Translations under genes and position numbers: made by a program
Notes under the pieces: generated by a model
What the model was told of the DNA's origin: nothing
Database searches by the model: none
The model's input: only the letters and a program-made list of their open reading frames with translations
In this document: one piece after another, positions 1-59,242 of the stretch
Numbering within the stretch: the stretch's first letter is position 1
How the letters are laid out: each line of letters opens with the position of its first letter
Origin: Cycas panzhihuaensis
Taxonomy: Eukaryota > Plantae > Cycadophyta
Reading direction: 5' to 3'
DNA length: 64,000 nt
NCBI GenBank assembly: GCA_023213395.1
Contig: CM041465.1
Coordinates: 130,393,741-130,457,740, forward strand

Positions 1-1025
1 CAATTCTTCCATTACTCCATAACAAACAAAGTATGTAAAGAACTTATTGACCAATTTGGAATGGAAAATTGTAATAATGTTAGCACACCAATGGAAACAG
101 GAGTCGTGTTAAATACAGAACATGATGCAGCTTCGGTTGATGCCACACAATACAGACAACTGGTTGGAAGCTTAATCTATCTCACAGCCACACGACCAGA
201 TATATCGTATGCTGTAGGGTTGATTTCTAGATTCATGGAAAACCCTAAAATTCCACATCGGAATGTTGCAAAGAGAATCTTGCGTTACTAAAAGGAACCA
301 TGGACCTTGGCCTAAGATATAATAAAGAAAACAATACAAAATTAACAGGTCTCTACGATTCAGACTGGGCTGGAGACAAAATAGATAGAAAGTCAACATC
401 AGGATATTGCTTCTTCCTTGGAAATTCCTTGATCTCCTGGAGCAGTAAAAAGCAGATCAGCAGTTGCATTATCCTCAATGAGCGAGAATACAAGTCGTGA
501 TCAACGCCACTTGTGAAGGAATATGGATTAGACAATTGTTGAAAGAACTAGGAGAAGAACAAACAATGTCTACTCGAATATTTTGTGACAATCAAAGTAC
601 CATAAAAATGACGAATCCTGTTTTACATGCTAGAACAAAGCATATCGAGGTACATCATCATTTTATCAGAGAAAATGTACAAAATAAAGAAATCAAACTT
701 CAGCATTGTCCGTTAGAAGATCAGATTGCAGATATACTCACCAAACCTCTTGGAAAAGAGAAATTCAGTTTCTTCAGAAATTTACTAGGGTTAAGATAGG
801 TAAAACATTAAGAGGGGGTGTAAAAGGTAATGTTTTACCTTAAGTTATAATGTTTGATGTAAGGGTCATGTACCACTTTCTTCTCCTCTCTTTAGTTGAC
901 AAGTGGCATTACCTGGTTGAGCGGTTATTATTTGTACCCACCTTGTACTTGTATATATACATGAATCATCAATAAAGAAATCATCGTGTGAGAGTGAATT
1001 TATTCCTCACTAAGATTTTGTTACA
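1..1025 (+). mobile_element. 3' end of a Ty1/copia retrotransposon (decayed RT/RNase H, PPT, 3' LTR 819-1025); 5' part lies outside the window
   Basis: ORFs YRQLVGSLIYLTATRPDI, DSDWAGDKIDRKSTSGY and HARTKHIEVHHHFIRE are broken by stops and frameshifts. PPT AGAGGGGG is at 811-818, followed by TGTAA...TTACA. Confidence 0.93.
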
Positions 1026-1203
1026 TTAAATACCAATGCCATGCAAGCCCCCTTAAAGTTAAGACAAAATCTAAATCCCATCGATCTTTATTAGCCATTC
1101 TCTTCTTGATCAAATATTCCATACATTGGACAAGTGAGTAGTGCCATACAATTGTTCCCCAAAGAATGGTTTTACATAATCCCCAATAATTGGACCAAGG
1201 TTT

Positions 1204-7200: not shown

Positions 7201-8083
7201 TAAGTCAACAACTCGATGATCAAAAATCCATTGCCGGATACATCTTTGGTGTCAGTAATGGATTTGTTTTGTGGTAGTCGAAGAAGCAACAAATAGTGGC
7301 ATTGTCTTCTACAGGGGCAAAATATCAAGGACTCAACGTTAATGCGAAGGAAGATGTATAGTTGCAAGGTCTCTTGGAAGTTCTTGGAGTTTCAAATGGG
7401 CATCTGATTATTTTCATTAATAATTAGAGTACTATTTGCTCATCCAGAACTTGCTTGTATGAAACACATTGAAATACAACACCACTACATCTGTGAATAG
7501 ATCAGGTTAGGGAAGCTATAGGTCAACTATTATCCGAGTGAATATTAGCTTACGAACGTCTTCACCAAAGCACTTACTGAAGATCAATTCACAAAGATGG
7601 CTATCAAATTAGGACTCTTAGATGTTATCCTTGAAGGAGGATGTATCGACAAGCATAAAGAAGTAGGATAGTCCCATTCTTCATGATAACACATTGTTGT
7701 AGGTTGCAGGTTCCCCACATTCACATTAAGGAGGGATCTTATCATGGCTACTATTTGTTAAGCCACTAGTTAATGTTAATGTGGTGGTTTAACTTACTCA
7801 TGATTAACAAAATGATGTGAGATATGCAGACGGTCACAACCCTTGTCAGGTGAAACCTCTTAGAAGGATATAAAATCCTAAGAGCCCTTGTATATTCAAT
7901 CAATCAAACAAGTGGTAATCAATGTGATCTATTGATCTTGGTTGTGGGTTTTTTCCTAAAAGGGTTTCCCACGTAAATCCTATGTATTGTGCATTTGTTT
8001 TCTATGTATATATTGTTTGCTTGTTGAGTTCGGTAAAAGATTCTGCAGTTAAACATGCATGTATGCATTCATGTTCCTTAATA
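1204..8083 (+). mobile_element. Full-length decayed Ty1/copia element A (LTRs 1204-1553 and 7737-8083; ~1.35-kb leader; gag ATG ~2906)
   Basis: Two ~350-bp direct repeats. PBS TGGTATCAGGCC at 1554, PPT AAGGAGGGA at 7728-7736, TSD GGTTT/GTTTT. Gag-PR-INT-RT-RH remnants are in copia order ([19 protein letters not shown]). Confidence 0.95.
6359..7210 (+). mobile_element. Solo LTR (~850 bp) of an Athila/Tat-like gypsy family, inserted in the RNase H of element A
   Basis: Termini TGTTG...CAACA with flanks ACTCT/ACTC(G). It interrupts DWGGDS|xDxKS, which is contiguous in sister element B (~20700). Its 3' end (TAAGTCAACA) resembles the LTR ends at 32343 and 46542. Confidence 0.85.
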
Positions 8084-8088
8084 GTTTT

Positions 8089-9770: not shown

Positions 9771-11118
9771 TGGTCTAAGTGGTGCATACATTTTATGATT
9801 GGTCTCCCATCACACGATTGATGTCACATAGTCAATGTAACCAGGGTTCGGACCCCACTTTATTCTATGAAAGGTAGATCGAATATGGGCATCGAGGTGG
9901 AGAAATAAGTGTAAATCTCCTCTACTAGTTTGGAGATATATGTTAGAATTTATAATTGCACTATGATATTGTAGTAGAAATGTAGAGTATAACACACAGC
10001 GAAATATAATATGCATATGTAATGACTAAATTATCTCATGAGTTATGTACACAAGTAAAGAATAAACATTAATGTAAAGTATCAAACATCATAAATCACG
10101 CATCAAGCAATCACCACAAGGGAAGCAATAGATTTATACATGAAAAACCCTATGTGGGAAAAACCATAAGAAAAGGTGGAGTTTGGAGCTCCGTAGCTAT
10201 TAACGTGGTAGTTGTTTGTTAAGCCACTAAGTTAATGTTAATGTGGTTTAACTAATGGTGATAGCAAAAAGGTGTGAAAAGTTTGGAGGGTCACAACCCT
10301 AGTCGGGTGACACCTCTTGAAAGAATATAAAAGCCTTGAGCCCTTGTGTATTCAGTATATTAAGTATCAAATCAGTGTGGAATAATCAATGTGATCCAAA
10401 AGGATCTTTTGTGATGGTTTTTTTCCCAAAAGGGTTTTCCCACGTAAATCCTGTGTACTGTGCATCTATATTCAGTGTGTATTTTATTTGATTGTTGTGT
10501 AAGGTTAAAGATTCTGCAGATGGGAACATATTTGTATGATTTCATGTTCCTAAACATGGTATCAGAGTCGTAGGGTCTTACATAGTTGAGGTCGAACGTT
10601 GGGCAAAGTGATGAGATTGTTGGTTGTCAGGTGAAGCCGTCAAACCCAAGACTTGTCTTGAGGGTCCATCAACTCCACCAACGTGCAGAAGTAGGCACAA
10701 CAAATTAGTGGTGGTTGAAGTAGTGAAAATCGCTATTTAACGAAGCATAAGGGTCTATTAGAGTCAATAATTAATCGTGAAGGCCACATTTGTGGTTTGA
10801 GTTGGCTCATCGAGGCCATCTGAAGCATGTTGATGATCTGTAAGGTTAATTCAAGCCAGCGAAGCATATACTGATGGTGATTCAACAACTATGAGGACAA
10901 CCATCTATGTATACACGTAAGTTGGTTATTTACTCATCAAAAGCACTATAAAACTAAACAAAAGGCAAGCTTTTTCTGGTGTTACATACATTTTGTCTGT
11001 ATCAGGGAGAGATTGGAGCCTATTTAGAATGTTTTTGCCCCTCTATACTGAGACTAGACTGAGTATATAGTAGAATAAAGAGTTATTTGCTGAATCTTGA
11101 GTTGTAGTGCCTTTATTT

Positions 11119-12939
11119 TGTTAGGGTATAATGTTTTATCCTAAGTAAATAAAAGGGTAATGTTGCACACCCTCATTTAGTAACTGACACTAGATATTGT
11201 GACACATCTCACCTCAAGAAAAGTTAGTTACAAATCAAGTTGTAATGGCCATAACTTTGATGTATATTTATAGAGACCAAGTCTCCAAAGGAATACAAGT
11301 TCTTCTATTCATTCCTAAATACATTCTTGTTTGTTTTAACATGGTATTAGAGCAGGTCTGATTGCTCGTTTGATCTGGAGGAGAGAGGATTCATTTGTCT
11401 AAGATTCATTCTACAAACTCAAGGGATTCAAAAGGAGGGAGACTGGAAATTACCTGAAAGGAGGTTTTTTTACAAAAGTCATTGTACAAACCTGTACAGA
11501 AATTGTGCTGACAGAAAAAATTTGAAGTTCTCAGATTCTAATGAAATTTGACGTGGAGATAGATCTCATCAAGAGCGTCCTTTTTCCCTTCTGGCCTGAC
11601 TTCATCAGAGATCATTTCAAGGTACTTTTGACCTAATTTTTATCCACATAGGTTTGGAGATATTTTCTAGAAAAATTTCTAGATTTTCAAGTTTTTAGTG
11701 AATAAAATCTGTCATAAAATCTCTATCTTGATGATTAAAAGACATTTGGACCAATTTCAAAGTGAATTGAAGGATTTTTCTAAGGATTTGAAGCATTTTT
11801 CTTAAAAACCCTAATTGCACCTCCTCGGTTTTCGGGTTGATTATCTGCAAACTGAATGACTGTTTTGAAAAACTAACCTTAGATCTGAAATCAAGGTTTG
11901 AAGAGTATCCTTTTGAGGTATACTTTGTTTGTGTCTATACAGTTAGGGTTTCGTATGGAATTCCATACAGTTGTACGAATAGACTACCATAAACACTTCA
12001 TTGTTGTCATTAATGGCTTCTCCCATTTTAGGACTGCCAAATCAGGATAAACTCACTGAAACAAATTACTATGTTTGGAAAATAAAAGTGGAGACCCTTC
12101 TAAAGGCAAGAAATGCCTAGAAAATTGCAAATGGTACTGAGGCAAAACCTATTAATACTAGTTCTACTTTGGCTGACTGGTTGGAAAGAGACAATTTAGG
12201 AGTAATCATTCTAAAGCTCTCAGTCTCTAATCTGCTTTTGGTGTATGTGGAAAGATTGAATTCCACTTCTATAATTTGGAAATATTTTCAAAATCTCTTC
12301 GGGCAAAAGAATAAAGGCAGAATAATAGCTTTGAAGGAGGATTTGTACAAGCTGCACATGAGAGAAAATGACACAGTAATAGAATTTATGCACAAAGTTA
12401 TTTCACTCAGAAGTAAACTTTTGAGTGTAGGAGATGATATCACAAATGAAGAATTGGTTGAAATGGTAGCTAGCAAGTTGCCAAAGCCCTTTGATGTTAC
12501 TATTAATTCCATAATAAATAATAATCAAATTGATACAATGACACTTGATGAATTGATTGGCTTGCTACTAAGATAAGAACAAAGAAATAGACAATATGAA
12601 GAATCATTAGAATTGGAGGAAGCCTTTGCTTCCAAACTTAGTTTTGGACCTCGATGACATAGCCAGGTATGAGGAAGGGGATGTGCTTCAGACATCAGAA
12701 GTCCTGCTCATGGTCGTTGGTAAGATACCAAAGGATGTGGATGTGGTAGATACACTAGAATCTGCTTCAGTTGTGGCAAACTTGGACATTTTGCCAGTTC
12801 CTGCAAAGTCTTTGATGTGTGTTACCACTATGGTCAACCAGGGCACTATCCTTTTCAATGCCCACAAAGAAGAGCAGACATCCAGAGAGGGAAGCATTCG
12901 ATTGGCAGCTACAACAAAGAGAAAATTAAAGAAGAAGAA

Positions 12940-12985
<46 letters not shown>

Positions 12986-15900
12986 CAACCTTCATTGCCA
13001 CATTGTCAGCAGGACTTAAAGAAGGAGATACATCGTACATAGATTTGGGAGCATCGCGACACATGACCAACCACGAAGATTGGTTTGAAACCTTGAAGCC
13101 CTATAGCTTCAACAAATCAATTGAATTGGGAGACAAATACCCACTTAACATAAAAGGGGTAGGTACCCTTGTAATTAAATTACATGGAGATGTAAAGAAA
13201 ATTGGAAATGTGTTGCTAGTTCCTGACCTAAAAATGAATCTTCTGTCTGTTTTGTAACTTAGTAAGAAAAGACTAAGGACAATGTTTGACAAAGAAGGTT
13301 ATTGTCACATTTTAGATATGAAAAATAATGGGAATCCAATAGCCAAGGGGATAAGATATGATAATATGTACAAACTGATATAAGATCTTGTGACTCCCAA
13401 TTTGAACATGAAAGTCTGCACTGTTGCAAATTCTGATAATAAAATGTGGCATTTGAAGTATGGACATCTTCCCATAAACACTTTAAAATTGATGGAAAAA
13501 TCAAGAATGGTAAATGGGTTACCTCACCTCTCCTCTGATGATTTCTTTTGTAAAGGTTGTCAATTTGGCAAACAACATCTACTTCCTTTCAAAGAAAGTG
13601 AATGACGAGCTCAATCCAGGCTAGAATTAGTTCACACTGATCTTTATGGTCCACTCACACCACTATCAATCAATGGTTGCAGATATTTTATCACTTTCAT
13701 TGATGACTTCACTTGTAAGGTATGGGTGTACTTCTTCATAACAAATTGGAAGTTTTTGAAGCCTTCAAGGAATTTAAAGCAGAAGCAAAACTAGAATCAG
13801 AATCAAAGATAAAATGCATTAGGTCAGATGGTGGTGGTGAATACATCTCAAAGGAGTTCCTGAACTTCTACAAGTTGAATGGGATACACAAACAATTCAC
13901 AACTCCTCAGACACCTCAGTCCAACGGAGTTGCCGAAAGGAAAAATATAACTCTAATGGAGATGGGACGCAACATGTTATACAGATAACAAGTTACCAAA
14001 TCAGATTGGGTAGAAGTTGTAAGTATTGCCTGCTACCTAATAAATCGAAGTCCAACAAGAGCATTGGAGAACATCACTCTTGAAGAAGCATGGTCAGGTA
14101 AGAAACCCAATGTCAGTTCTCTCAAAATTTTTGGTAGCCAAGCTTTTGTTCATATACCTGATAAAAGGAGGTCGAAACTTGATGCAAAAATCATAGAATG
14201 TATTATGATAATAGGGTATAGTAAAAATTCAAAGGCTTACAAATGCATAGATCCAGAAACAAATAAGATCTATGTAAGTAGAGATGTTGTCTTCAATGAA
14301 GAAGATAATCAGGAAGTACAGTCACAAATACAAATAGTTGAAGCTGAGGCAAAGAAATCAGAACCTGAAACTATCCTAGAAGAAGTTTCAGAAATCACTA
14401 CAGAAGAAATGCCATTAATAGAATCGTCTTCTCACATAGAGACAACAGAAGGAGAAAGCTCATCTACAGATCAACCAGCATAAGAATTAGAGGTCAAAAA
14501 AGAAAAAGAACTACCAAAATGGCTCATCAGAATAATTGAAGAAGGCAAAGGAGATGTGTTCGAACACAAAACAAGAAGTCAAAAGCCCAAAGCACTACTG
14601 AGTAGAGTTGAACCACAATCATTCCAAGAGGCCAGACACCAATCAAAATGGAGATTAGCAATGGATTCTGAAATGGACTCGATAATCAAAAATCAAACAT
14701 GGGAATTGGTAGAACTACCTCCAAATAAACTAGTGGTCAATTGCAAATGGGTCTTCAAAATCAAAGAAGGAGCAAATGGAAAAGTGGAAAAATACAAAGC
14801 TCGCCTTGTTGCAAAAGGATATACACAATCAACAGGTGTTGATTTTGAAGAGACCTTCTCTCCCGTGGCCAAAATGGATACGGTAAGGACAATTATTGCC
14901 TTGGTAGCTTTGAATAATTGGAAAATTTTTCAGTTTGATGTAAAAGTGCTTTCCTAAATGGAGAACTAGAAGAGGAAGTTTACATGGCACAACCCAAGGG
15001 GTACATCAAAGAAGGCTAAGAACATTTAGTATGTAAATTGAAAAAGGCTTTGTATGGGCTAAAGCAAGCTCCTCGAGCCTGGTATGCTAAACTAGATCAG
15101 CATCTATGTCAAAATGGGTTCCAAAGATGTAGCTCTAACTCAAGTTTATACACAAGGAAAAGAAATGGACTAATCACAGTTATTGTTGTTTATGTGGATG
15201 ATATGATTCTTACAAGAAATGATGAAGAATCAATCATGAGCATAAAAAGAGAACTCGAAAAGAAATTTGAAATGACAAATTTAGGCCTCGTAAACTATTA
15301 TTTGGGACTAGAAGTAGATCAACAACAGAATTGTATTTCTCTATCTCAGAGAAAATACATAAAGGATCTGCTAATAAAATTCTAGATGGCAGATTGCAAT
15401 CCTTGTGCAACCCCCATGGAAGTCAATTGTAACGTAGTAGCAGACAAAGAAGAACAAGCATCAGATGCTACATTGTACAGGCAACTTATCAGAAGTTTGA
15501 TATATCTTATAACCACTAGGCTAGATATATCATATTTAGTAGGATTGGTCTCGAAGTATATGCAAGGACCCAAAGCAAGACATTGGAAAGCAGCTAGAAG
15601 AATATTGAGATAGTTTCAAGGTACGAAGGATCTAGAATTGGTTTATACCAAAGGACCAACAACTTTGATAGGATACTGTGATTTAGACTGGGCAGGAGAT
15701 AAAGAACAAAGGAAGTCCACAAGTGGATATTGCTTCTTCCTGGGATCAACTGCAATTTCTTGGTGTAGCAAGAAACAACCTACAATTGTGCTTTCATCAA
15801 TTGAAGTTAAATACAAGGCTGTTGTAACTACAACATATGAAGCAGTTTGGCTACAACAACTTCTAGCTAAAGTAGAACAACAACATGATCAAGCAACAAT

Positions 15901-16368
15901 TCTATATTGTGACAATCAAAGTGTCGTTCAGTTAACCAAGAATCCGATTCTACATGCCAGAACAAAGCATATAGAAGTACACCATCACTTTATAAGAGAA
16001 AAAGTTCACAAGAAGGAAATTGAATTGGAATATTGTCCTACCATAGAACAAATAACAGACTTGATGACAAAATCTCTTGGAAAGGATAGGTTTCAAATTT
16101 TAAGAAATAAAATAAGACTAAAAGAGATAAAACATTAAGAGAGGGTGTTAGGGTATAATGTTTTATTCTAAGTAAATAAAAGGGTAATGTTGCACACCCT
16201 CATTTAGTAACTGACATTAGATATTGTGACACATGTCACCTCAAGAAAAGTCAGTTACAAATTAAGTTATAATGGCCATAACTTTGATGTATAATTATAA
16301 AGACCAAGTCTCCAAAGGAATACAAGTCCTTCTGTTTATTCCCAAATACATTCTTGTTTGTTTTAACA
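11119..16368 (+). mobile_element. Decayed Ty1/copia element C with 223-bp LTRs (11119-11341, 16146-16368), inserted in the leader of B
   Basis: TSD TATTT/AATTT, PBS TGGTATTAGAGC, PPT AGAGAGGG. Gag with two zinc knuckles, PR (IDLGASRHMT), INT, RT, RH. About 12 LTR differences counted by eye. Confidence 0.96.
12931..12984 (+). repeat. (GAA)n microsatellite encoding poly-Glu between the gag zinc knuckle and the protease of element C
   Basis: About 18 GAA/GAG triplets, in frame with ORF 12817-13257. Confidence 0.95.
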
Positions 16369-28200: not shown

Positions 28201-28503
28201 TATCATCTTTTATCTTTCAGCTAGACAACCTCAACAGATCAATATTAGTTGGATAACGTCAACAACTAATTTGGTATGCCAATTAATAAATGTATGAGAT
28301 TTTTCTTTGTCTCATTAACAAGTGTAATAGTCTCATGTCCTTATCTCTCCATCATCAAAAACAAACTGAGCCCTTTATGAAATATCATGTGGTGTCATTT
28401 TGATCAAACAGCTGTCATTCATTCATCAAAAGCTATTCAAATATATCATTTGACCAGTGACGTGCACTTCACTAAGCTAAATGTAATTTTCCAAGGGGGA
28501 GTT

Positions 28504-38400: not shown

Positions 38401-39425
38401 GCTAGTCAAACTTGTGGTAGACACCAATGATTCCAACGAAAGGAAGATTCGCAATGGAGAGTTGCATTGTTGGAGATGTGTTACATGTGGGATTTGGGTC
38501 CCTTACCTCCCTCATGGAACCTGGTCAATTTGCAAGTTGGTAAGATTTGATGCGTAGGATTTATTACAGGAAGAGGGAATCAAGTATGAGGAGACTTTTG
38601 CACTAGTCTCTACGTTGATTATGGTCCAATTGATCCTTACTTTGGCAGCTTCATATAGTTGAGAGTCACATTAAGTCAGCGTTCCTTAACAGAGACTTAA
38701 AGAGGAGATTCACATGGCTCAAGTGGCTCAACCTCTTGGTTTAGTGAAGGAAGCAGGTTGAGTTCTATGAACTGAGTATCAGTGCGAGAGAAGTTGTATG
38801 GTTGCAGGGACTATTGGAGTTGCTTCCAAAGAATCATGCACATATGAGACATAACACCATTACACTCGAGAGGAGATCAGATCAAGGAAGATGCAGGTTG
38901 AGTTTTGTCCAACTAAGGATTGACTTAAGGATGTGTTCACCAAGCTCTTACTAAAGATTGCTATATCAACGTTCATGCATATTTGGGATTCAGTGAGGTT
39001 ATCCTTGAGAGGGGATCTATCGACAAGGATAAAGATAGACCAAACCCTGGGAAGACTTCAAGACTCCACATTTACATTAAGAGGGGTTGTTAGAGTGGTA
39101 TTAATAACCACTTACCGACTAGTGTAAAGCAGTGTAATAATGTACGAATATTAATTGACGTAAATATGTGATATATGTGAGTCGATGGATGTAAATCCGA
39201 ATATTAATTATTCGAAGCACTTATGATCTATAAATATAGATCAAAGTCCATTGTAACATTACATGAGCGTTTTGCAAAAATGTAATTATATTATTTCTGT
39301 GGTAAGTTTTTTTTCGAACATGTTCCTACGTCAAATTTGTCTATCCCGTGTGCATGTTCTATTCGAGTCTATTGTGTTCATAAACGATTTTGTCATCCTA
39401 TTTGCATATTTGGTGTTTTCTAACA
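35474..39425 (+). mobile_element. Non-autonomous copia derivative G of the A/B lineage (LTRs 35474-35811 and 39088-39425)
   Basis: TSD CATAT/CATAC, PBS TGGTATGAGAAC, PPT AAGAGGGG. 37640-39080 is a deleted patchwork homologous to A/B INT-RT-RH. No gag found. Confidence 0.9.
36450..37320 (+). repeat. Degenerate tandem repeats in the internal region of G
   Basis: Recurring ATTTGAAATATTTAGT(T/C)GC-like units at 36450-36950. Duplicated GGGCGAGTTATC...TTCA(C/T)TGATTGATAGAAGGG at ~37198-37320. Confidence 0.65.
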
Positions 39426-42400
39426 CATACTGACCTATGTGGACCTCTTTCTCTTTGTTCAATCAATGACTCTAGATATTTTTTAACATTCATTGATGAC
39501 TTTTCTAGGAAAGTATGGATTTATTTTCTCTACAATAAATCAGAGGTCTTTGAAAAGTTCAAAGAATTTAAGGCCGAAGTTGAGCTAGAATCTAGATCAA
39601 GAATAAAATGTATCAAGTTAGATGGTAGAGAAGAATATATTTCGAAAGAATTTTTGAATTTTTGCAAGGCACATGGAATACGTAGACAATTTACAACTCC
39701 TTACACACCACAATCTAACGAAGTTGTTGAACGAAAGAATAGAACAATCATGGAGATGGCTCGTAGCATGATTCAAGACAGGCAAATCTCAAAGACTTAC
39801 TAGGTAGAAGCAGGAAATACAGTTGGTTACCTCATAAATCGAAGTCCAACAAAGGCCTTGGAACAAGTTACTCAACATAAAGCTTGAACTAGGCATAAAC
39901 CAAATGTGATTAACTTGAAAATTTTTGGATGTTAGGCTTTCATTCATATACCGGCCAAAAGGAGATCCAAACTTGACTCTAAAAATATAGAATGCATAAT
40001 GATAGGCTACAGTAAAAATTCAAAAAGCCTATAAATGTATAGATCCAAAAACTAACAAGAACTATATAAGCAGAGATGTCATATTTAATGAAGAGGATAT
40101 CATTGGAAATACTCCAACTCCTCAAGTAATTGAAGAAGCACCAAAGAAGATATCTCAAGAAGAACCTCTTGCAGAAGAAATCTCTGGAGTTACTTCAGAA
40201 GATACAGAACTTGATGACATAGAAGAATCAAAGAGGGTGCCATTTTCTCATGAAAGCTCGACCACTGAGGAAGAAGAATTATCTCCCATAGGCTCAATCA
40301 CTGAAAAAGAAAAGAAGAAAAAAAGGGTACCAAAATGATACCTTAAGACAATTGAAGAAGGGAAAGGAGATATGTTTACATACTGGATGAGAAGCCAAAG
40401 GCATCAAGCATTGCTCAACAACATAGAACCAAAGTCCTTTGAGGAAGCAAAGGAACATGAAGAATGGCAAGCTATAATGGATGCTGAGATAGAATCAATC
40501 TCCAAAAATCAGACCTAGGAATTGGTCAATTTGCTTGTCAGCGAGCCTATGGTCAATTGCAAGTGGGTATACAAAATAAAAGAAAGTGATGATGGCAGAA
40601 TAGAAAAACACAAGGCCAGACTTGTAGCAAAGGGCTATACCCAGACAGTCAGGATAGACTTCGAAGAAACATTCTCACCAGTAGCCAAATTAGATACTAT
40701 GAGAACAGTAATTGCTTTAGCAGGTCAACACAACTAGAAAATCTATTAGTTGAATCTAAAAAGTGCCTTTTTGAATGGGAAGCTCAAAGAAGAAGTCTAT
40801 ATGAAACAACCAAAAGGATATGTTCAAAAAGGCCAAGAAAATCTTGTATGCAAACTAAAAAAGGCACTATATGGGCTAAAGCAAGCCCCAAGAACCTAGT
40901 ATGCCAAACTAGACAAATATCTCACTCAGAATGGTTTCCTGTGATATAGCTCAGACTCCAATTTATATGCCAAGAAAAGAAATAGGTTGATCACCATAAT
41001 TATGGTATATGTGGATGATATGGTTCTCATAGGAAGTGACACAGAATCAATGTCAAATATAAAGGCTCAGTTGGAAAATGGCTTTGAGATGACAGACTTA
41101 GGACTTCTAAACTATTATTTGGGAATAGAAGTCAATCAAAAGGAAGATTCAATCATATTATCTCAAAGTAAATACATCAAAGATCTGTTGACTAGATTCA
41201 AAATGGAAGATTGCAACAATTGTGCAACTCCAATAGAAACTAATTGTGACCTGGTTCCAGTCAAAGGGGAAACTACAGTTGATGAAACACTATATAGGCA
41301 ACTAATTGGAAGCCTAATTTATCTCACTGCAACTAGACCTAACATCTCATATTCTATGGGTTTAGTTTCTAGATATATGCAAGATCCAAAGACAAGACAT
41401 TAGAAGCCTGCTAAAAGCATACTTAGATATCTAAAGGGAACAACTAATATGAAATTCACTTATCCAAAAATGAAATTAGACAAGTTAGTTGAATTTTATG
41501 ACTCAGACTGAGCAAGAGATAAAGAAAAGAGGAGTTCAACAAGTGGGTACTACTTTTCTCTGGGGTCAGCAACTATCTCTTGGAGCAGCAAAAGGCAACC
41601 TACAGTTGCTCTCTCGTCCACTAAAGCAGAATACAAGTCAGTTGCTAGTGCCTCATGTGAAACAATCTGGCTGAGACAACTTCTGTTAGATCTAGATCAA
41701 CAACAACAAGGGTCAACAACTTTGTTTTGCAACAATCAAAGTGCCATCAAATTGACCAAAAACCTTGTACTCCATGCACGAACAAAACATGTTGAGGTGC
41801 ATCATTATTTCATACAGGAAAGGTGTAGAACAAGGAAATTGACTTGGCATATTGTCCAACAAATGAGCAACTTGTAGATATCTTAACAAAGCCACTCAAC
41901 AAGGACAAATTTCAAATCCTTAGAGATAAAATATTAAGAGAGGGTGTTAAGATATAATGTTTTATCTTAGGATTAATTAAGGGTAATGTCTTAACCCCTC
42001 TTTATGTAACTCTTTATATAACTTAGACATATGTCCAACACATGTCATCAAGACACACAACGGTTACAATTCTTCATGTATATTTAAGGAGATCTTCTCT
42101 CATATAATAGATCATAAGTCATTCTTCAATCTGTATCTAAATTGTAACAAGGCATTTTTCTCCACATGCTTTAGGTGTTAGATCTTTGTGGGCGGCTCGT
42201 ATTACTCTTACGAGTAGCTTGCATGGTCATTGCCACCACCTCCAATGCCAAGACTTGCTCAACAGTCACCACTTGGAACAATAGGCCTTGAAAAGGAAAC
42301 AAGAAGGAATCAAAAGAATGGTCTTCTTCATGGCCGATTCATCGCCATTTATTCATGCATAGATGCCTCCTTTTGCATGTCTGATACAGGCAATTGGATA

Positions 42401-44149
42401 GATCCTCACATACTTCAACTCTCTGCATCCCTCAAACTGCCCGTCTGTCACAAATGCTTGCCATGTCTATGACCTACGATGTCTTTGATTGTTCCCTGTC
42501 ATCCTACAATGTTGAACCACATTGCCCAAGAATTCACAACAATTGCCTTTTCGACCTGAATCATTTGCATCCTCATCACGACTTTCATTTTGCTCCGGAT
42601 TTGCTACCCCTTGGCAACCACCAAAATTTTACAAAGCTTCTCTATTGGGATTTGCCCTTAAACTGTCAACTGCTACTTAACATTTAACTGTCCCATATGA
42701 TTTATAATATGCCACATAGGTCATCATGCATCAACAATTTATGCTCTTATAAAATTGCCCTCATAAATAGTTTCATCAAGCCATTTAATGCCATGTAAAC
42801 CATGCTTATGCTACCATAATATTTTCATTAAACCATTTATAATGCCACAAAACTATTTCAAATGTGCCCTTTTAATATTCTCATCATAATACCATACATG
42901 TGCCACATACGTGTCTATTTTCTATCAAATATACCTATACCTGTCTCTGTTTGCCACTCATCATTTTGTATAGGCCTTTTGCCTATTTGTTGTCTTACTA
43001 ATGGGGTACTGGCTTCATTCTGGCAACGAATGTCAGTTTGAGATGCTCATAAAAACCTCTAGAATGATTCACTAGTGACAACAAATTTTAAAATAGGACA
43101 CTCGCAAAAGCCTTCACTAATGAAGATCATATCTTCATGTCATATCTAGTGGATTGTTTTGAATACCTGCATGCTTCGAAGAATATTGACATCAACATAC
43201 TAAAATAATATGTCCACATAAATTTAAATTAGCATACCATTAGTATCATTATTCTGCTTCATCATGCGGTTTTGTATATGGCTTCATCTCCTCTGTATGT
43301 GAATCTTCATCCCATTCATCTGGCCTCTAAATCTTAGTCATATGTCACTAGCAAAACTAGCATATTTAGATTTTGGCCCATCAAATTCACCTCATATCTG
43401 GCTCCTGTTCTAGCTCTATCATTGGCTCATCAATCAACTCTATAGGCTTTTTCTTGCTACATAAGATCTCTCCACTAACCATGGCTTTGATACCATGTTA
43501 GAATTTATAATTGCACTCTGATACCATATTAGAAATGTAGATTATAACGTAGCAGAATATAATATGTATATGTAATGACTAAATTTTCTCATGAGTTATG
43601 TACATAAGTAAAGAATAAACATGAATGTCAAGTATCAAACATCATAAATAATGCATCACCACAAGAGAAACAATAGATTTATATGTGGAAAACTCTATGT
43701 GAGAAAATGCACGAGAAAAGGTGGAGTTTGGAACTCCTCTTAATGATCAAAATGAATACATCTCCAGGTCTTAGACCTTTCTCAAGTTCTTAAGTGGTGT
43801 GTGTACATATTTATATCAATGCTCATATTATGAGTAGCCTATCATGTTTGTTAAGCTTTTACATCATTCAATAATATCTTTGCATGGATATATGTGCATC
43901 TCACATATCTCAATGTACGTGAATGGTGGGATTGTGTATGTGTCCATTCCACTAACATTAAACATTACATATGTGATTAAATCACATATTCCAACAATAT
44001 ATGACGTAATAGAGTGAAGGATTACATGCAGATGATGCAATGACGTATAGAGGTGGCCATCTTCCTTAAAGATTTATTGGTTTGCTCTTTATCTATGGAT
44101 AATTGATTTCTACCCTATAATCTCTTTCTTAAACAGATGAAACAACAAC

Positions 44150-46482
44150 ACGATCAAGGAGATTCCCTACTAGCTCACTATATGCAAATCTTGGTTGCAA
44201 GAGACATTATGAATTTCTCCATATTAAATGTGGCTGTGTAACCTGACCATTTCAGCCAATAAAACCATAGAATTTTGCCCAAAATAAGCTATCAAACCCT
44301 TAATTCTTTCTTGTAGAAGATAATAGTTGCCACAATTTTTGCATAGTAATATCACCACTAACCTTTGGATAGCCAAGGCTCAACATTTTAATTGCAACAT
44401 GCAATACTACAATAGAAAACCCATTGGCTTGCATGTAGCATAGTACATCCAATTAATTTAACTCAACAATGCCATCAATAAATCACAATAGGAAATGAAT
44501 GATTTTTGTGGACTCACCAATTTCTAGCTTACATGTTTAATATAGGAGCTCCACATTGTTAGGATGTAATGTTTTCATCTAGGATTATGTACACTTGAGG
44601 GTCACATTCCCCCTTTATGTATATCTAGACATGTGTAAGACACATGTCACTTGTACAAGAGTCGGTTACATTATACAACTTGTATATATATGTACTCAAT
44701 CCATGATATCGATAAAGACTTCATTTTTCTGATTGTTCTTCAGGTTGTTCTACATGGTATCAGAGTTGGTCTATTTGGCTACCTAGCTAGTTTTCTGAGG
44801 ACTGCTCAGACTCTCTTAAGTCATTTTGTGATTGAATCAAGGCAAGACTCAAGGATTAGAAGAAGAGTTCAATTTTTTAATATAAAGAAGAAGTTATCTG
44901 CAGGAAATTCTCTTCCGTACGGATCAGTACGGACTTGTACGGTCACAAATTTTTTGACCATCTCAGATTAAGCTCAAATTTGGTCAAGAGACTCATCTCG
45001 ACACGCAGATCACTTCTCTCCACTAGCTCAAGTGCATCTAACACCGTTTTCGAGGTCATTTCCCCTATTGATCAGTTGCGCTAGTTTGGACACAAAAATC
45101 CAATTTTCTCTTCGATTTTCTTCAGAAATCCGGGTAAACAATGATCAATACTCCTTATCAGCTTGTAATCGAAGTCTTAAAAGCATTTATTGTGATCATT
45201 TCAGCTTATTTGAAGAGTTTTTTACATTTTGAGCAAAAACCCTAACCACCCATTATTTGTTTTCAAGCTTGATTTCTCCCAAGTCTGAATGAATTTTTGA
45301 AATCTGGTACCAATTTTGGAATCCCCTTGAAAAGATCTTTCGTTTGAGTCCATTTTCATTCAAATCCGTACACTTTCAATTTTGTACGAAATTCGTACGG
45401 TTGTACGGACAACCTTTGTTCAAAATCTTGTCTGCATTTATTGACAGTCTCTTCTCAAATCTTATCTGTGTTTATCAATGGCCTCTTCAATCTTGGCCCT
45501 GTCCGAGCAAGATAAATTATCATGTGTGGAAGATCAAGATAGAGACCCTCCTTAGAGTTAAAAATGCTTGAAAAATTGCAACTGGAAAGGAGAAAAAACA
45601 TGATGATAATGACTTGAAATTTCCCAGTTGGAAAGAAAGGGACAATGCAGCCTTAATCACATTAAAACTCTCAATTTCAGACCCCCTACTCGTCTATGTG
45701 AAAAATATGAACTCTTCTGCAGATGTTTGGCAATTGGTTGAGAACATGTATGGACAAAAAAACAAAGCCCAGATCATAGCACTAAAAGAGAACCTCAGGC
45801 AACTCCTATTTGACTTGGATCAACCACAAAAGGGACCAACAACTTTATTCTGTGACAATCAAAGTGCAATCAAACTAACAAAGAATCCAGTTCTACGCGC
45901 TAGAACAAAACACATAGAGGTTCAACATCACTTCATAAGAGAAAAGGTTCAGAACAAAGAGGTGGATTTGATATACTATTTGACAAATGATCAAGTTGCA
46001 GACATCTTGACAAAACCTCTCAATAGAGACAGGTTCCTAATTCTCAAAAACAAGTTGGGATTCAAAGGATGAAACATTAAGAGAGGGTGTTAGGATGTAA
46101 TGTTTTCATCTAGAATTATGTACACTTGAGGGTCACATTCCCCCTTTATGTATATCTAGACATGTGTAAGACACGTGTCACTTGTACAAGAGTCAGTTAC
46201 ATTATACAACTTGTATATATATGTACTCAATCCATGGTATCAATAAAGACTTCATTTTTCTGATTGTTCTTCAGGTTGTTCTACACACGTGCAAATAAAA
46301 GTACACAAACTCCAACTCACCAAAACTTCCAATCTTTAACTCTAGCTCATTTTGGTTCTTTCACTGATGTCCTTATGTCACAGTCACTTCTTCTTATTAC
46401 TGTAGGCTAACCTTGGCTCTTCAATCTTCTTTGATCTAATCTTATCTGATCTACAGGAACTTAGTGTCCTACTCTAATGCCA
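44150..46482 (-). mobile_element. Possible very old copia integrase remnant, interrupted by element H
   Basis: Only short minus-strand motifs: KWSGY, AKIVATIIFY, CTMLHA, and WH*..GH near 46460-46482. Confidence 0.35.
44557..46285 (+). mobile_element. Internally deleted copia element H (198-bp LTRs 44557-44754 and 46088-46285) carrying a gag-RNase H fusion
   Basis: TSD CACAT/CACGT, PBS TGGTATCAGAG, PPT AGAGAGGG. Five LTR differences, all transitions. ORF 45614-46072 joins gag (IIALKENL) to RH (RQLLFDL...RTKHIEVQHHFIRE). Confidence 0.95.
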
Positions 46483-49993: not shown

Positions 49994-50049
49994 AGAAGAC
50001 TACCCCATGAATCTGTTTATATCGACATTCAAGATTCTACAGCGGGATG
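49994..50049 (+). CDS. Candidate 56-nt internal exon of an unidentified host gene
   Basis: Branch-like CTGAC, long pyrimidine tract, acceptor TTTTCTTACAG|, donor ATG|GTAAGC and U-rich flanks in non-TE DNA. Two open frames: RRLPHESVYIDIQDSTAG and EDYPMNLFISTFKILQRD. Confidence 0.55.
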
Positions 50050-50748: not shown

Positions 50749-53700
50749 TGTTAGAATTGATGTTCATATTAGGACAAATTTGTAATGGTGAGTAGTCAAG
50801 GCATCATTAGCTTGATGACATGTGTCATAGGAGTTAGAAAAGTCCTAAATGGACTTGTGACATGTGTCGAGGCAATTACAAGTTCTTATTTATGTTAGAA
50901 TATAATGTTTAATGTTGTGTATGGTTAAGTAAAGTGTGTCCTAGGATTAATAGTCATAGTCCTAAGTCTTAGTCCAAAAGTCATTATAATATTGTGTGAG
51001 AAGATAGAAGCTTATTGGTCAAGTTAGTTGGTGTAATGTCATTGGTTATGACAAAGGTATTTGTCCCACATGCATTAACTGTCTTGTATGTCCTCCCACC
51101 TCTTTTGTATATAAAGGTGGTTGAGGTAGTATATGTCATCAAGTCATCATGGAGACTCATATTGAGTCTATGATGCATCATTGTTATGCTTATGTTAATT
51201 GAATGCAAGTTATACTTTGGTTATCAATCTTGTAGTTGTATTTGAAGTTAGATGCTCTCCATGTTAAAATTTAATATGGTATCAGAGCAGGTTGTGTGTT
51301 GAGGATGTTGTGGTGCTGGGTCACCAAGTTTTAGTCAAGGAAGGAGGTAGCTCTGTTGAGTCAGCAGCCAAATTGAGGATTCAAATTGGGAAGGTGAGAT
51401 CCCAAGGTCATCAATATTGCAAGGTGTGTATTGTGGTGATACAAGGCACATTTTTACCAGGTAACTCTACTCCTATAGCTTGTTAGGGTTTGTCCCTTGA
51501 AGAAAGTGGAAGTAATATATGATAACTGTCTTAAGGTGAAGGCTGGGTTGTGATGATATTATACCTAGAAGATCTATTTAGGGTTTGAAATATTAAAGAC
51601 CTGGTGGTGGAAATTGAAGGAAGTTGTCAAGGTTCGGTTCTTCATAAATTCTGCATTGCAGTTACTCATATTATCTCGCGTGCTTAAACATAATAGACTT
51701 CTGTGTTGGAAACTGTATAGGACCTATGGTAAAACCCTAGTTAGAACGGATTGAATCGTTCTCTAGGCTAGTACTGGAGATAATCACTACAGAAACTATA
51801 GTTGGGCTATTCCATACATGAAATTTGTAGCAGATGATCGGACAATGGCAAACAGTGTTGCAGTAGCCTCTTTGGCAACAGTGAAGCAGATGTTTGGTCT
51901 ACAAGTATTTGGCCCTATATTTTTTTTGTTGAGTTTTGTAGTTGATGAAGAAATTATAATAGACAAGTCGTCTGAAGCTTGGAGTTTTTTAAAGGACATC
52001 GAATATGATTTGCATGACATCTGGTAATCATTTTACAACTCAGTGAATTCTTGTCATTCCATCATTATTGTGATTGAAATAGAGGGAAAGAATTATGTGG
52101 CAAAGAAGCCTATGTTTGCTTCTGTCTTTGAATTGACCTAGGAGTCACAATAAGAAATGGCACAATTGTGGCAAACTGTAGAAAGTATAGCATGAAGGCA
52201 TTCAAGGCTGCTATACATCCAGTCGAACAAGTTGCACCAGGTTTTCCAGTGGGCTCTTGAAGAACATATCTGGAACAACTGTGGAGGGACACTAGTCTAG
52301 TTCCAACTAATCATCTCTTTCTTTCTATTATCAAACCACATCACAAATCTCAACCTCTGGCAAATTCTTTCAGAGACGAAGGCTGCGATCAGGGTTTTCT
52401 TCGTTCCACGGGCCTGGAATTGGTAAAAAATTTAGGACCTGGGGATGCCTTGACCAAAATAGTGTGATTTTAATCCAAGATGATCCGTCAGAGGAGCAGT
52501 TGTTAGAGGAGTCGTAGCATATGCCATCACTTCAGAAGATCACAGATTTTGGTCTATAAAGTACAGAAGGTTACAAAGGCACTATAAGATTTGCAATAGT
52601 CGATACTAACATCTTGAATGAAGCATGCAATGACCTTGATTTGATTTATACAAGGAATGCAACAAATATCTGTATCACATTTTCTGCAACTTGACGTTGA
52701 CCGTGACACATTTAAGTCAGGACGTGTGGGTCTTTAAGGTTCGTGTGAATGGTGTGATCGAATAATGCCTTGACTTGTCATCGCCGCACGTGGTGTTATG
52801 ACCTCAGATGACAAGAGGCATCGTCATCAGGCATACCTAGCAATCAATATAACAGGAAGAGGTGGTAACTGGTAGCACTCACAGGAACAGACCTAAGGAC
52901 AAGCAGTACAACGAAGTCCTAAGCCAAAGCGCATATGCATGAATGATTTTGGAGTTGAGGTTCAAAGTTCAAATGCTACAACCAACACTTGTAGCAGTAA
53001 TGTATCGATAGTGCATCCTGATCATTGGTAACAGACCCACATCCAGGGTGAGGTTTTTGGATGTGTCGCATAGTAGAAGGAATTTAGGGATTGCTAGGAA
53101 AAGATACACATCTGAACAGAGGGTTCTGAACAGGTTGTACAGTGGATTCACAATCGCTATCAAATGGCTTGTCTCCGACTAGAATATTTATTTTCTTTGT
53201 GCCATTTTTCATAAGTCTTTCATCAGTTGCTAGTGTTCATAGACAGGATATCTGTTTTCTTTGAGAAGGGCAAGTTTTGGGCTAGAAGTCAATATTGAGA
53301 TTTGTTTGGTGAAGATACCTTGTTTTGACACGGTTATGTTGGTGTGAAATGAACACATAATCTTAGGTAATATTTCTCTTGTTCAATCCAATCATACAAT
53401 ATGGAGTTGAGCGACGTCGTAGTTTTTGTGCCTAAAAGAAAGGAATACTGGTTGATAGATCTCCCTTTTCCTTTACCCAAATATGTCGGCACTAATTTTC
53501 GAATCTGGAAAATTAAGATGGAGTGCATATTCAGGGCAAAAAAACTTTGGAAGACAATTATGGGTACTGAAATGGCTCACGAAGAAGGGGAGGAAACTTT
53601 CAAAAAGAAAAATAGAATAGCCATTAATGTAATACTTGCAACCTTTGATAAGGATAATCTTCCTTCTTCCTATCACTTCCTCGTCCAGACTCTTCAAAAT

Positions 53701-56700
53701 ACCAAGTCAGCTAAGGACACCTAGAAACTGCTGGCAGAAGTACAAGAAAAGGGACCTGAAGAAGTACAAAGGAGTATCAAAAGGACAAATAACCAAAGGA
53801 AGAAGTTGAAAAGGAAAGCTAAAAATCAGCTTGATTCTGGTAAGAACAATCCTCACCTAGATATTACGAAAGCAAATGAACGGGAGTCTGATAATCTTTG
53901 CCTGAGCCTCACCAAGATGACAAGAAACCTTACACCTGGGTTTGATAGAAAAATGGAAATTGAAGAACCTGAATTTCAACCTCTATAGGTAATTCTTCAT
54001 GGAAACACAAACACCCTGAACGAAGGTATGTGCAATATTGTCCTAGTTTGTATTGAAAGATTTGTAGCCAGGATTCAAATGAGGTTGAGATACACATCGA
54101 TATGCACATGTTGGAGACTATCTATGATTACACTCAATTCAGTCACATCTTCTATCTTCATCTTTGAAAGAATCCAAATAGTGGCAGCGTATCTTACAAC
54201 AACTCTAAAAGGCTCTTTTAAGGAAGGAAGGATCATAGGAAAGATACTATATGATCAAAATCTTGGTTGTGAAGATCATATTATATTTTGGATAGGCTAC
54301 TTGATCATAAGGTTCAATCATATTAAAGTAATGCTCCATTTTTGTATAACCATAATCAGGAAGTATGTACATGTAGTCATCATGGAAATACTCATTATAC
54401 TTGGTTCAAGGAATTTCCTGGGTGATATGGAGAAAACAGGGCATCTTGCTAGTCATGCACATGTAACTAAACAGGCTACAGGTAACTATGATGAAGCAAT
54501 TGAAACTCATCTTAATGAATTCATTGCTTCAGGGGAGGATGACGTTGTCTCACCACTTGATGACTTATTGTCATATTTGGATATTGGTGATATTGTCAAC
54601 TTATCTAATTGTTGACATTTATTTGTTTGATTGCTCACATGCTAAAGAAAGTGGAAGCAAACAGGCAGTAACTAGAATTCTGGTGGAAAATATATTTGAT
54701 GTACAACCTAAAGATACCTTTGATAAGTACATGCAGAAACACTTGATAGGTCCTCACCAAGCACAAGTCAGCTCAAGCTTGATCTACTACACATTTTGTG
54801 TAATAAAAGGTTCCCAATTGTGCATGAAGACAAAGTTCAAGAACTGTCACTCTAAAGGACTACTCCAAAGGCGACATTGCAGGATTAAAGACCAAGATCA
54901 AGTCCAAGACATTGTATTCAAAATTTTTCCAAGATCAAGACGATGTACATTAAAAAAAAAATGCAAAGTACATGTTGATCAAATTAGAGTCCATTGGAGG
55001 TCATTTTTAATGTCCTAAGTCCATTGTCAAGTGTCATGTTAGTCTTTAATATTCAGTCACTTTTTGTAGTCTTGACATTAAACATTAAGGGGAGGTGTTA
55101 GAATATAATGTTTAATGTTGTGTAGGGTTAAGTAAAGTGTGTCCTAGGATTAATAGTCATAGTCCTAAGTCTTAGAGTCCAAGAGTCATTATAATATTGT
55201 GTGAGAAGATAGAAGCTTATTGGTCAAGTTAGTTGATGTAATGTCATTGGTCAGGACAAAGGTATTTGTCCCACATGCATTACTTGTCTTATGTGTCCTC
55301 CCACCTCTTTTGTATATAAAGGTGGTTGAGTTAGTATATGTCATCAAGTTATCATGGAGACTCATATTCAGTCTATGATGCATTAGTGTTATGATTATGT
55401 TAATTGAATGCAGGTTATACTTTGGTTATCAATCTTGTAGTTGTATTTGAAGTTAGATGCCCTCCATGTTAAAATTTAACAATTTGGACCATTAACAATC
55501 TTGCTTATATATATAAATGTATAGGTTTATGCATTGTATTGATTAGATTCATTCTTAATGAATGAAGAAAAGATTTTAAGATAGACCAATTCTACCTAAA
55601 AACTATCTTGTTATTTGTGCATTGGTTCCATTTGATCTTATCCCAATTGTTTTTATTTGGTATCAGGGCAATTATCATGGGTTTTTGATTAAATTTTCAA
55701 CCAGTGGTTTATGGAACCAATCGATGACCAGGTGGGTGGTGTAAATACCAGGTATGTTGTGTGATCAAGGGCACTTAGGGCATTTGTCTAGTGAGATATG
55801 AATCAAAATTTTTTGGCTCCTTTGTTAATAATTGGGCAAGTTGCAATGTTATGGTCACTATATTGAGTGACTTGAGAAGCTTTTTCAATCAATGGAAGGT
55901 CAATGACTATTAATTAAGCATTGTAAATAGTGCATATTTAAAGTTTCTATTTGACGACCATTTCTCTCTATGTTTCAGAACACTGCAGTGTGTTTTCTAT
56001 GCATCTGGTGATGTGCCTTTGTGGTGGAAGTATTTAGATAGGATTGTACCATCTGTGCCAAAATTTGATTGCTATAGATCATAAGAAGTCAAGGAAGGGC
56101 ACTTCATCTTTAAAAATTAGAGGTCATTCTATCAATTTACCCCTTATTGTATTCTATAGTATCCCACATAGTAGTTGTTTCAGATGGTTTCATATGTAAC
56201 AACTGTCCAAGTGAGATTAGACTCTTTGTTTCAGAAGAATAATTTAGTACATAGCCATCTGATTTAGACTATTGACTTTTTTCTTTTTTTATTTTTTTGT
56301 ATTTGATCCTTTATAGGTATGTAGAATTTGTTTGGGCATTAGATCGAAGTAATTTGGTGACTATACAACGGTCTAGAGTTGCATTGTATCTGTGAGTTGT
56401 TATACATACATATTGAGATTGCAGGGTGGAGTCGAGCAATGAAAGAAGGCGCCGTTGTCATGAATAGCCTCTACATGCGAAGATATTAGCAGTCTACAAA
56501 CTATTTTTCCACATAACTAAGAGGCCAAAATGGAGGATACACCATCACACACCAAGCCACCAACACCCAACGAAAAAATGAAGGGAGAAGATTGAACGAC
56601 GAGCCTTATGATGTTGAATCAAATCAATTGATTCAAGATCGTCCAAGTTGTTTTATAATGCTAGATTGCATTAAACCCTTTTCAATTGTGTTTTGAAGTT

Positions 56701-59242
56701 TGGTTTTTAGCCCCTAAGTGTGTTATCCCCTAGTCACATAGAACATAGGGTGCTAAGTGATTTTTTGGTCTAGTGAAAATCCCAGTGTAGATTTTGAAAG
56801 TACATTTGTATTGCACTTTTTCATGCTCTTTTTTTTTTAAGTGTGTCCATATGATGTTTTTCCAACTCCCTGTGTGGTGTTCGAGGAATTTTGTGTTTTG
56901 CTAGTGCTCTGCATAGCGACCGAGGACTCTACAGTTGAAATTTTTAATAAAATACTATGTGTTGTGCCAGGGCTATTAACACTCATTTTTTTGTATAATT
57001 TTGTGTTATTTTTCACATTAGTTATGGGTGGACATCTATTTTCCTATTCCAATAAGCTATCCCAAAAGACATGCTATCACTCCAACAAACTAGGTCATTT
57101 TAAGAGTAATTGTAGGTTGTTACAGGCTAGTTAGCAGTAGCACAAGGGTAGTCAGTAGAATGTGGTCGGTTAGCAGAATATGGGAATTTCTCAAATATGG
57201 TACATCGACTCAAGTGCTTCTAGGCACATGACTGGCAGATTTGAATGGTTCGGGAAGTAACTGGGTATACTGTAACTCTAGGAGACAACAAAGTCTTAGA
57301 TGCTAAGGGCATAGGGAAGGTCCCATTCATAGCACTAGATGATGAAGATTACCACATCAATAATGCGATGCATGTAGTAGGACTGAAGAAGAATCTAATT
57401 TTAGTTAGTCAAATTGAAGACAACAATATGAGTGTTTTCTTCAAGGATGGGAAGGCCACTATTAGTGATTGTGAAGGGAAACAATCACAGAAAGTATTAG
57501 GAAAGGTGGTCTTTATAGACTTTTGGTAAATCTGTAACCCAAAGAGCATTGACTGTAGATGCATTGAGCAAAATTCATTTGTGGCATGAGAGATTGGGGC
57601 ATTTACACTTTCCTATCCTACATTTGATACATAAGTTGAATATGGTGCATGGTCTCCCAAAGTTCAAAGCAAAAAAATGCATTATTGAACCCTATATTTT
57701 TGAGAAACAATATAGGAAAAAGTTTGCAAAAGGCAAGCCTTCGAGGGCGACTAAAAGGCTAACCCTAATCCACTCAAATATCTTTGGTCCTATGCCAACC
57801 ACTTTGCTCAAAGGTGCAAAATATTTCTTGACTTTCATTGATGATTTTTTGAGAAAGGTTTGGGTGTATCCCATAAAGGAGAAGTCCTAAGCATTTGACA
57901 TCTTAAAAGAATTTAAGGTGAAGGGGGAAAACAAAAGTGGTCAAAGGGTGAAAATACTTAGATCAGGTAATGGGGGAGACTACACCTCCAATGCCTTTGT
58001 CCAATTCTATAAGGACCATGGAATTAAGAAGAAATTGATGACAACATACACACAGGATGAACAGGACATTGGTAAAAAAGGCCAAGTCGATGATGAATGT
58101 GAAGAAACTCTCAGACATTTTTTGGGTTGAAGTTGTTTATATAGCAACGTACCTGACCAACAATAGTGCTACCAAAGTTGTTTGGGATGTAACACTTAAA
58201 GAAGTATGGTCAAGACGAAAACCTACAGTAATCCATCTAAAAATCTTTAGAAGCATGATGTATATGCATGTTCCCAAAGAGAAACAAAAAATATTTGATG
58301 ACAAAAGTTCCAAGTGCATCTTGATGTGATACAATAAGTAAAGAAAAACATGTCGGCCAGGGAGGTACACACAACTCAGGACATCATCTTCGAAGAGGTT
58401 GATAAACAGGTCATAGATCAAGATCTGGACTTGGACACTTTGAAGATTTGTCAAGACAAAGGGAAATAGATCAAGGAACAACTTGAATGTAGTAATTCGA
58501 GATAACAAATTGTTGAACCAAAAACTAACCCAAAGCAGGAAGAAGAAGATGAAGAGGAGTATGAAGACACCTAGGAATCTTAGCCAGAAATGCAACCTGT
58601 GCTCGCTTCACTTGCCAAGAAATTTTCCAAATAGTATTTGAAAACCATTGTAGAAGCTCAATTGCCCAAGATAGAAGGAAAATACAAGTTGAGGATGAGA
58701 CCTAATATGATCAATTTTGCTTTGATATCAAATGTTAAAGAGCCTTCAAGTTTCGAGGAGGCTTGTTAGAAATAGAAGTGGAGAACAACAATGGGTGCTA
58801 AAATTTATGATGTTGAGTAGAACAAAACTTGGGACTTGGTTTGTTTGCTAGCAGGTTAGCAAGAGATAAATTTGATAAATTTAAATTTTGCATCAGCATT
58901 AAAGCCAATGATATGACCATTAAGGGAGAGTGTTAGAATTAATGTTCATATAGAACAAATTTGTAATAGTGAGCAGTCAAGTCATCATTAGCTTGATGAC
59001 GTGTGTCATAGGAGTTACAAGAGTCTTAAATGGACTTGTGATATGTCTTAAGGTGGTTATGAGTTTTTATTTGGACTATTCTCGATCTCGCTTGTATATA
59101 TAGGTGTATAGGTTTATGCATTGTATTGATTAAACTCATTTTTAATGAATGAAGAAAAGATTTTAACATAGACCAATTCTACCTAAAACCTATTTTGTTA
59201 TTTGTGCATTGGTTCCATTTGATCCTATCCCATTTGTTTTTG
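50749..59242 (+). mobile_element. Deleted copia element I (5' LTR 50749-50892 plus 55487-55655; 3' LTR 58931-59242)
   Basis: TSD CTAAC (50744-50748, 59243-59247), PBS TGGTATCAGGGC at 55658, PPT AAGGGAGAG. Zinc knuckle, PR and INT remnants at 57050-58400. RT/RH are mostly deleted at ~58860. Confidence 0.88.
50893..55481 (+). mobile_element. Non-autonomous TR-GAG-like element J (LTRs 50893-51276 and 55096-55481), inserted in the LTR of I
   Basis: TSD ATTTA/ATTTG, perfect PBS TGGTATCAGAGC, PPT AAGGGGAGG. Copia gag N-terminus (GTNFRIWKIKMECIFRAKKLW) at 53401-53724. No INT or RT. Confidence 0.92.

Follow-up and report, generated by a model that had tools for sequence, protein, structure and literature searches.

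The window, the whole 64,000-nt stretch of Cycas panzhihuaensis DNA analyzed here, is a nest of decayed LTR retrotransposons, in which Pfam searches recovered copia domains (Retrotran_gag_2, Pol_BBD, rve, and RVT_2) as well as separate gypsy pieces. Self-comparison and inspection of element ends yielded LTR pairs for nine copia-type elements (B, C, D, F, T, G, M, N, and O), each with TG...CA LTRs and a TGGTATCA-type PBS (tRNA-Met), while three further elements (A, H, and K) are represented by their 3' ends, with no 5' LTR located within the window. LTRs are about 200–500 bp long (198–400 bp in seven measured pairs), and all copies are old, with 86–97.5% identity within these seven pairs; the LTRs of B (1204–1553 and 7737–8083) are 88.2% alike, those of C 89.4%, and those of D 94.6%.

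Coding content is uneven across the elements. B, C, and D have Pfam matches in the Ty1/copia order gag, protease, integrase, reverse transcriptase (RT; RVT_2), and RNase H, those of D comprising gag, protease, integrase, and RT, and copia-type pieces also occur in H, the K/G region, M, N, and O. T and F have no coding match in Pfam and were assigned to copia through the similarity of their junctions and tails to N; an RNase H remnant was not found in T, F, or N. T is only 1.2 kb long with a non-coding interior of 425 bp, and M is a deletion derivative of 1.7 kb. The end of pol falls inside the left arm described below, or shortly ahead of it, in A, D, and M, and the RNase H-type frame of A (482–799) stops where that arm begins. 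Among named RNase H relatives, the best is a protein labelled Ginkgo (54%) whose tail, NIKGECWNI, is codon-compatible with the junction of element F and would fit a gymnosperm host. A quick RNase H tree was mostly unresolved, with B and C filling less than half of its columns; the REXdb lineages Ivana, Ale, and Gymco I–IV are described in the accessible part of PMC6317226. No copia relative was found among viral contigs, the junction pattern itself gave eight IMG/VR matches, and no Rfam family matched anywhere in the window.

Some of the insertions lie within LTRs. The 3' LTR of F is split (9940–10192 and 27096–27358) by C, which itself contains D, and by a gypsy element, and the 5' LTR of O is split (50749–50891 and 55482–55654) by the insertion of N. 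Two PBS-like motifs, 31 nt apart, lie at the end of the F 5' LTR (43495–43526, minus strand), and element D has a GAA repeat expansion encoding a poly-Glu run between the zinc knuckle and the protease (12930–13005, plus strand).

At the 3' end of every copia-type element, a short arm just upstream of the PPT is complementary to a second arm inside the LTR (Table 1). The PPT purine run adjoins the LTR directly or with one intervening base, and the left arm borders the PPT, ending 8–9 nt before the LTR in 12/12 junctions. Arms are 8–15 bp long with 0–2 mismatches. A preliminary description of this DNA had placed the right arm 9–35 nt inside the LTR; the upper end of this range holds, and the true start is from +8. 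Among 24 stems scoring at least 8, the left arm ends 8–9 nt before the LTR in 21, and the loop measures 14–19 nt in 14, being longer in B, C, F, and G. The CATTA/TAATG core, earlier said to be constant apart from the 3' LTR of G, has both halves intact at 10 of the 12 junctions; the left arm of K reads TATTA and the 3' LTR of G reads TAGTG, the G core being intact solely in its 5' LTR counterpart, near 35506. The right arm of H pairs perfectly with the left arm of O (cross score 14).

Table 1. Copia 3' junctions and upstream PPT-like junctions in the window
Feature	Span (strand)	Left arm	PPT	LTR start	Right arm	Pairing and remarks
A 3' junction	798–840 (+)	798–810	811–818	819	828–840	13/13 pairs
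B 3' junction	7715–7784 (+)	7715–7729		7737	7770–7784	14/15 pairs; C-T mismatch common to C
D 3' junction	16127–16166 (+)	16127–16137		16146	16156–16166	Left arm comprises the final pol codons and stop
C 3' junction	21217–21285 (+)	21217–21230		21238	21272–21285	
F 3' junction	27317–27379 (-)	27379–27367		27358	27329–27317	
H 3' junction	28799–28838 (-)	28838–28826		28818	28811–28799	Decayed; 11/13 pairs
T 3' junction	34879–34922 (+)	34879–34891		34900	34910–34922	
G 3' junction	39066–39128 (+)	39066–39079		about 39088	from 39120	Full pairing with bulge
K 3' junction	41924–41967 (+)	41924–41936		41945	41955–41967	One T-G core pair
M 3' junction	46068–46110 (+)	46068–46079		46088	46098–46110	One bulge
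N 3' junction	55075–55118 (+)	55075–55087		55096	55106–55118	
O 3' junction	58911–58951 (+)	58911–58923		58931	58939–58951	One C-T mismatch with both LTR copies
G upstream PPT-like junction	38999–39032 (+)	38999–39007			39024–39032	Perfect 9-bp repeat, non-CATTA, 16-nt loop
B upstream PPT-like junction	7625–7658 (+)					Arms 8/9 complementary (from alignment with G); not significant alone
C upstream PPT-like junction	21122–21155 (+)					Arms 7/8 complementary; score 5, not above background alone

We scored each junction against an anchored ungapped stem score computed at 3000 random window positions (mean 5.35, 95th percentile 8, 99th percentile 10). Nine of the 12 ends stand individually above this background (A 13, B 12, C 11.5, D 11.5, F 13.5, T 13, K 13, N 14, and O 10; background fraction ≤ 0.012), whereas G and M (both 8.5; background fraction 0.04) and H (8; 0.06) are weak, the pairs first proposed for M and G requiring a one-base bulge and those for H including two internal mismatches. 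All arms quoted in the preliminary description are present where it placed them, and its claim of a repeat at all 12 ends thus holds for presence (12/12), if not for individual strength.

The pairing is confined to 3' ends, as had been proposed. For the nine elements with a 5' LTR in the window, host flank scored 5–7.5 against the 5' LTR, compared with 8.5–14 for the internal left arm against the same LTR. It is also kept in elements without coding capacity, namely T, F, and N as well as the deletion derivative M. The gypsy PPTs of the window show no such stem above background, in agreement with the earlier reading: three junctions, from at most two families, scored 5.5, 6.5, and 7.5–8, none exceeding the 95th background percentile. 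The three gypsy 3' ends have short hairpins of another kind (22088–22109, minus strand; 61515–61534 and 60392–60411, plus strand), which lie entirely upstream of the PPT and do not enclose it; these have predicted energies of -6 to -13 kcal/mol, with eight perfect pairs in the one at 61515.

The outer arms change in a complementary manner between families, which was the central observation of the preliminary description. Across the 12 ends, own arms score 11.4 on average against 8.6 for swapped arms (p = 2e-5), and when one member was taken from each of five families, the true matching ranked first among the 120 possible (p = 1/120) in all 48 choices. In the eight short-loop ends, 93.3% of cells are paired, compared with 79.5% in shuffles, and 0/500 shuffles reach the observed score; sliding the partners against each other lowers pairing to 36–47%. 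Six of the 13 pairs vary on both sides in these ends, a count reached by 22/500 shuffles; the test as a whole is uncorrected for kinship. Contigs aligned on junction M differ in letters that are unlinked and have no bearing on covariation. Taken as a pairing constraint, the inverted repeat is real and well supported.

The five core pairs, out of 13 in the stem, are constant and uninformative on structure. Because these pairs are invariant or nearly so, the core may instead be a primary-sequence signal, made up, on one side, of a T-rich box ahead of the PPT together with end-of-pol codons and, on the other, of LTR-end sequence, with outer pairing that is secondary or weakly selected. The left arm of D, encoding the final pol residues and the stop, would fit such a signal, and T-rich boxes ahead of the PPT are important in Ty1 and lentiviruses. 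We nevertheless consider this reading distinctly unlikely, given the double-sided change in the outer pairs and the fact that other families, the upstream module of G, and 14 published classic elements have arms of different sequence in this position.

We extended the analysis to 126 copia RNase H loci from public contigs (80 + 46), calling junctions by a PPT rule blind to the arms. The final rule called 78 of the 126 loci, which form 48 clusters (hereafter families); 46 loci had no PPT call within 400 nt, Sirevirus-like ones with a long linker among them, and two were too short. The rule was tightened once, after its output had been seen, and the outcome was the same as with the first version (77 called, 50 clusters, 13 above the 95th percentile, p = 5e-5), which included several miscalls. 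Across the 48 families, own arms pair better than swapped ones (6.71 vs 5.16; p = 5e-5, with or without G-U pairs). Fourteen families exceed the 95th percentile and nine the 99th, and 14 beat their own shuffled LTR at p ≤ 0.05. Stems scoring at least 8 are concentrated at the junction itself (14/48), compared with 7/46 at +10 nt and 1–4 at other offsets.

Most arms in these families differ in sequence from those of the window, and one (L009) shares the CATTA core, so what recurs, in a minority of families, is pairing and position and not sequence. The other 34 of the 48 families have no significant arm; the hairpin is therefore not essential to copia replication generally, and the selected structure of the preliminary description stands as a pairing constraint, borne out by swap tests, pair counts, and other families, but neither as a general copia feature nor as an undescribed one (see below). 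Sirevirus-like loci repeat the published pattern, with an arm at the terminal octamer and weaker scores at upstream octamers. Relatives of copia RNase H are also encoded on 46 contigs in prokaryotic genome assemblies (L089–L134), where a PPT and the start of an LTR often come next; these contigs are likely eukaryotic contamination of bins.

Three window elements, B, C, and G, have a second PPT-like junction at the end of pol, 75–100 nt before the working PPT (Table 1). Its flanks are conserved in all three, and the spacer behind it diverges; in the upstream region of B, a different 8-bp stem scored higher (7) than the one aligned with G. This upstream module is likely a relic of LTR exchange, with coding constraint on the pol tail as an alternative.

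Which nucleic acid strand forms the stem was addressed by structure prediction. Folded as minus-strand DNA, the stem appears in 12/12 MFE structures, with z ≤ -2 in seven; folded as plus RNA, it appears in 8/12, none of which reaches z = -2. Mean pair probability over 20 junction stems is 0.82 on the minus strand vs 0.37 on the plus strand, compared with 0.63 and 0.60, respectively, for 48 chance stems, and forcing the PPT to remain unpaired brings plus-RNA pair probability up to 0.75. Because the minus-strand advantage is largely due to mispairing of the G-rich PPT on the plus strand, it is no proof that the minus strand is under selection. A G-U pair immediately flanks the stem on its outer side in 11/24 junction stems vs 8/48 controls (p = 0.012; six of these 11 come from window elements that are related and non-independent), an excess that points to RNA. 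Internal mismatches show no clear difference (six A-C and one G-U in junction stems vs 13 A-C and seven G-U in controls). The strand tests are thus in conflict, with folding favouring the minus strand and the outer G-U pairs favouring RNA.

From the arms themselves, their position, their complementary change, and their retention without coding capacity, we infer a function in plus-strand priming, and we give an even chance to the proposal that a hairpin around the PPT helps define the start of the plus-strand primer. RNase H cuts the PPT only after the PPT is in an RNA/DNA hybrid. An RNA stem would be unwound before the PPT is copied, and since the PPT must first be copied into hybrid, such a stem cannot offer the PPT to RNase H directly; for these reasons new minus-strand DNA would be the likelier working form. 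Its arms could snap together and strip the RNA just 5' of the PPT, leaving a PPT hybrid of roughly 8 nt in the 14–19 nt loop. Along an alternative route, the RNA stem would serve as a pause site for RT, and between these two forms we incline only slightly toward minus-strand DNA.

A different role for an RNA hairpin is that it was selected in genomic RNA for another step, for instance to give the 3' end the shape needed in packaging or in first strand transfer, or to prevent the G-rich PPT from mispairing. Both arms come together solely at the RNA 3' end, and the enrichment of outer-end G-U pairs would suit such a role. The 3' region of Ty1 containing PPT1 is well structured in vivo according to the available part of PMC7969010, and a PPT hairpin is said to exist in HIV RNA (PMC3601003, in part, citing Watts 2009). 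Plus-RNA pairing is, however, often outcompeted in prediction (mean 0.34–0.37), and the close alignment of the left arm with the edge of the PPT is more in keeping with primer definition than with a general signal for packaging, making this role rather unlikely in our view.

The repeat could also have arisen without any function, as a mutational by-product of nascent DNA folding back during reverse transcription, with one arm copied from the other. Minus-strand DNA is predicted to fold back readily, and fold-back copying would likewise yield complementary change between families. Pure copying is disfavoured by mismatches that stay uncorrected, namely the C-T mismatch common to B and C and to both LTRs, the mismatch of O with both of its LTRs, and the bulge of M in both LTRs. 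Copying alone also leaves unexplained why, in distant families, the arms lie precisely against the PPT rather than at neighbouring offsets, and we judge this origin very improbable.

Primer definition by the hairpin might be combined with the tandem junctions of B, C, and G. In such a scheme, a minus-strand snap-back clamp would define the plus-strand primer, and left arm, PPT, and LTR would move as one exchangeable cassette; because they move together, B, C, and G would still carry the old cassette with its own stem 75–100 nt upstream of the new one, possibly providing two priming sites. We regard this combined scheme as unlikely.

The question served here is how the plus-strand primer is chosen in copia elements with a PPT of only about 8 nt. 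The window supplies short perfect stems and natural variants for functional study (an uncompensated mismatch, a bulge, and a tandem module), and the arm could help annotate copia 3' ends.

Neither the inverted repeat nor the RNase H/PPT hypothesis is new. In the sections available to us, Bousios et al. 2010 (PMC2829016) describe an inverted repeat that occupies a precise position around the junction of PPT and 3' LTR; all Sireviruses except three have it, as do nearly half of classic copia elements. They list 14 classic elements (supplementary file 2) and propose that the stem-loop exposes the PPT to RNase H. The accessible part of Benachenhou et al. 2013 (PMC3601003) restates the repeat, adds HIV, and calls a systematic search warranted. 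Because the feature was already published, our analysis is mainly confirmation, and the window elements are new examples. We identified no covariation analysis, functional test, or gymnosperm case among the papers listed by a search of the open literature, which included parts of PMC4032725 and PMC2665208, and the strings 'covari' and 'compensat' are absent from the main text of PMC2829016. What is added is covariation and null-control support, apparently lacking in the available sections of the 2010 description, along with pairing that is kept where coding capacity is gone and, in three elements, a second PPT-plus-repeat module in tandem.

As in the classic copia repeat of Bousios et al., the left arm in the window borders the PPT and the loop contains the PPT and the LTR start. 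The right arm lies on average 18 bp inside the 3' LTR in their classic elements, according to the sections seen, and 8–35 in ours; the left arm may fall in pol coding sequence in that type, as it does in element D. Arms of 12–14 bp in Copia, Art1, Tpv2, and Ta1-3 (PMC2829016, in part) are comparable to those of the window; the two arms are about 88% alike in the published type and differ by 0–2 mismatches over 8–15 bp in the window. Unlike that set, the window elements belong to different families, and the CATTA/TAATG core is absent from the 14 arms listed in the available material. Non-coding elements are not treated in the sections of PMC2829016 seen, whereas the window has the repeat in such elements; upstream Sirevirus PPTs are described there as lacking the repeat, whereas the upstream junction of G has one. 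The PPT hairpin that the available text of PMC3601003 merely notes for Sire LTRs and HIV-1 resembles that of the window, in that U3 pairs with sequence upstream of the PPT and the PPT lies in the loop.

The SIRE PPT junction of Sireviruses has the same hairpin geometry as the window junctions and was recovered as a positive control at L058, L060, L061, and L070. Other Sirevirus features differ. Sireviruses have multiple AGGGGGAG octamers in their linker, whereas none occurs at any of the 12 window junctions; their PPT is followed by AT/TG, 10 bp before the LTR, whereas the window elements have no AT spacer; and their linkers and LTRs average 1.5 kb and 1.28 kb, respectively, whereas both are short in the window. 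The sole exact AGGGGGAG octamer of the window lies at 28494–28510 on the plus strand, is followed by TT/TG, and has no inverted repeat (score 5). Lacking these three Sirevirus features, the window elements are not Sireviruses and fit the classic copia type.
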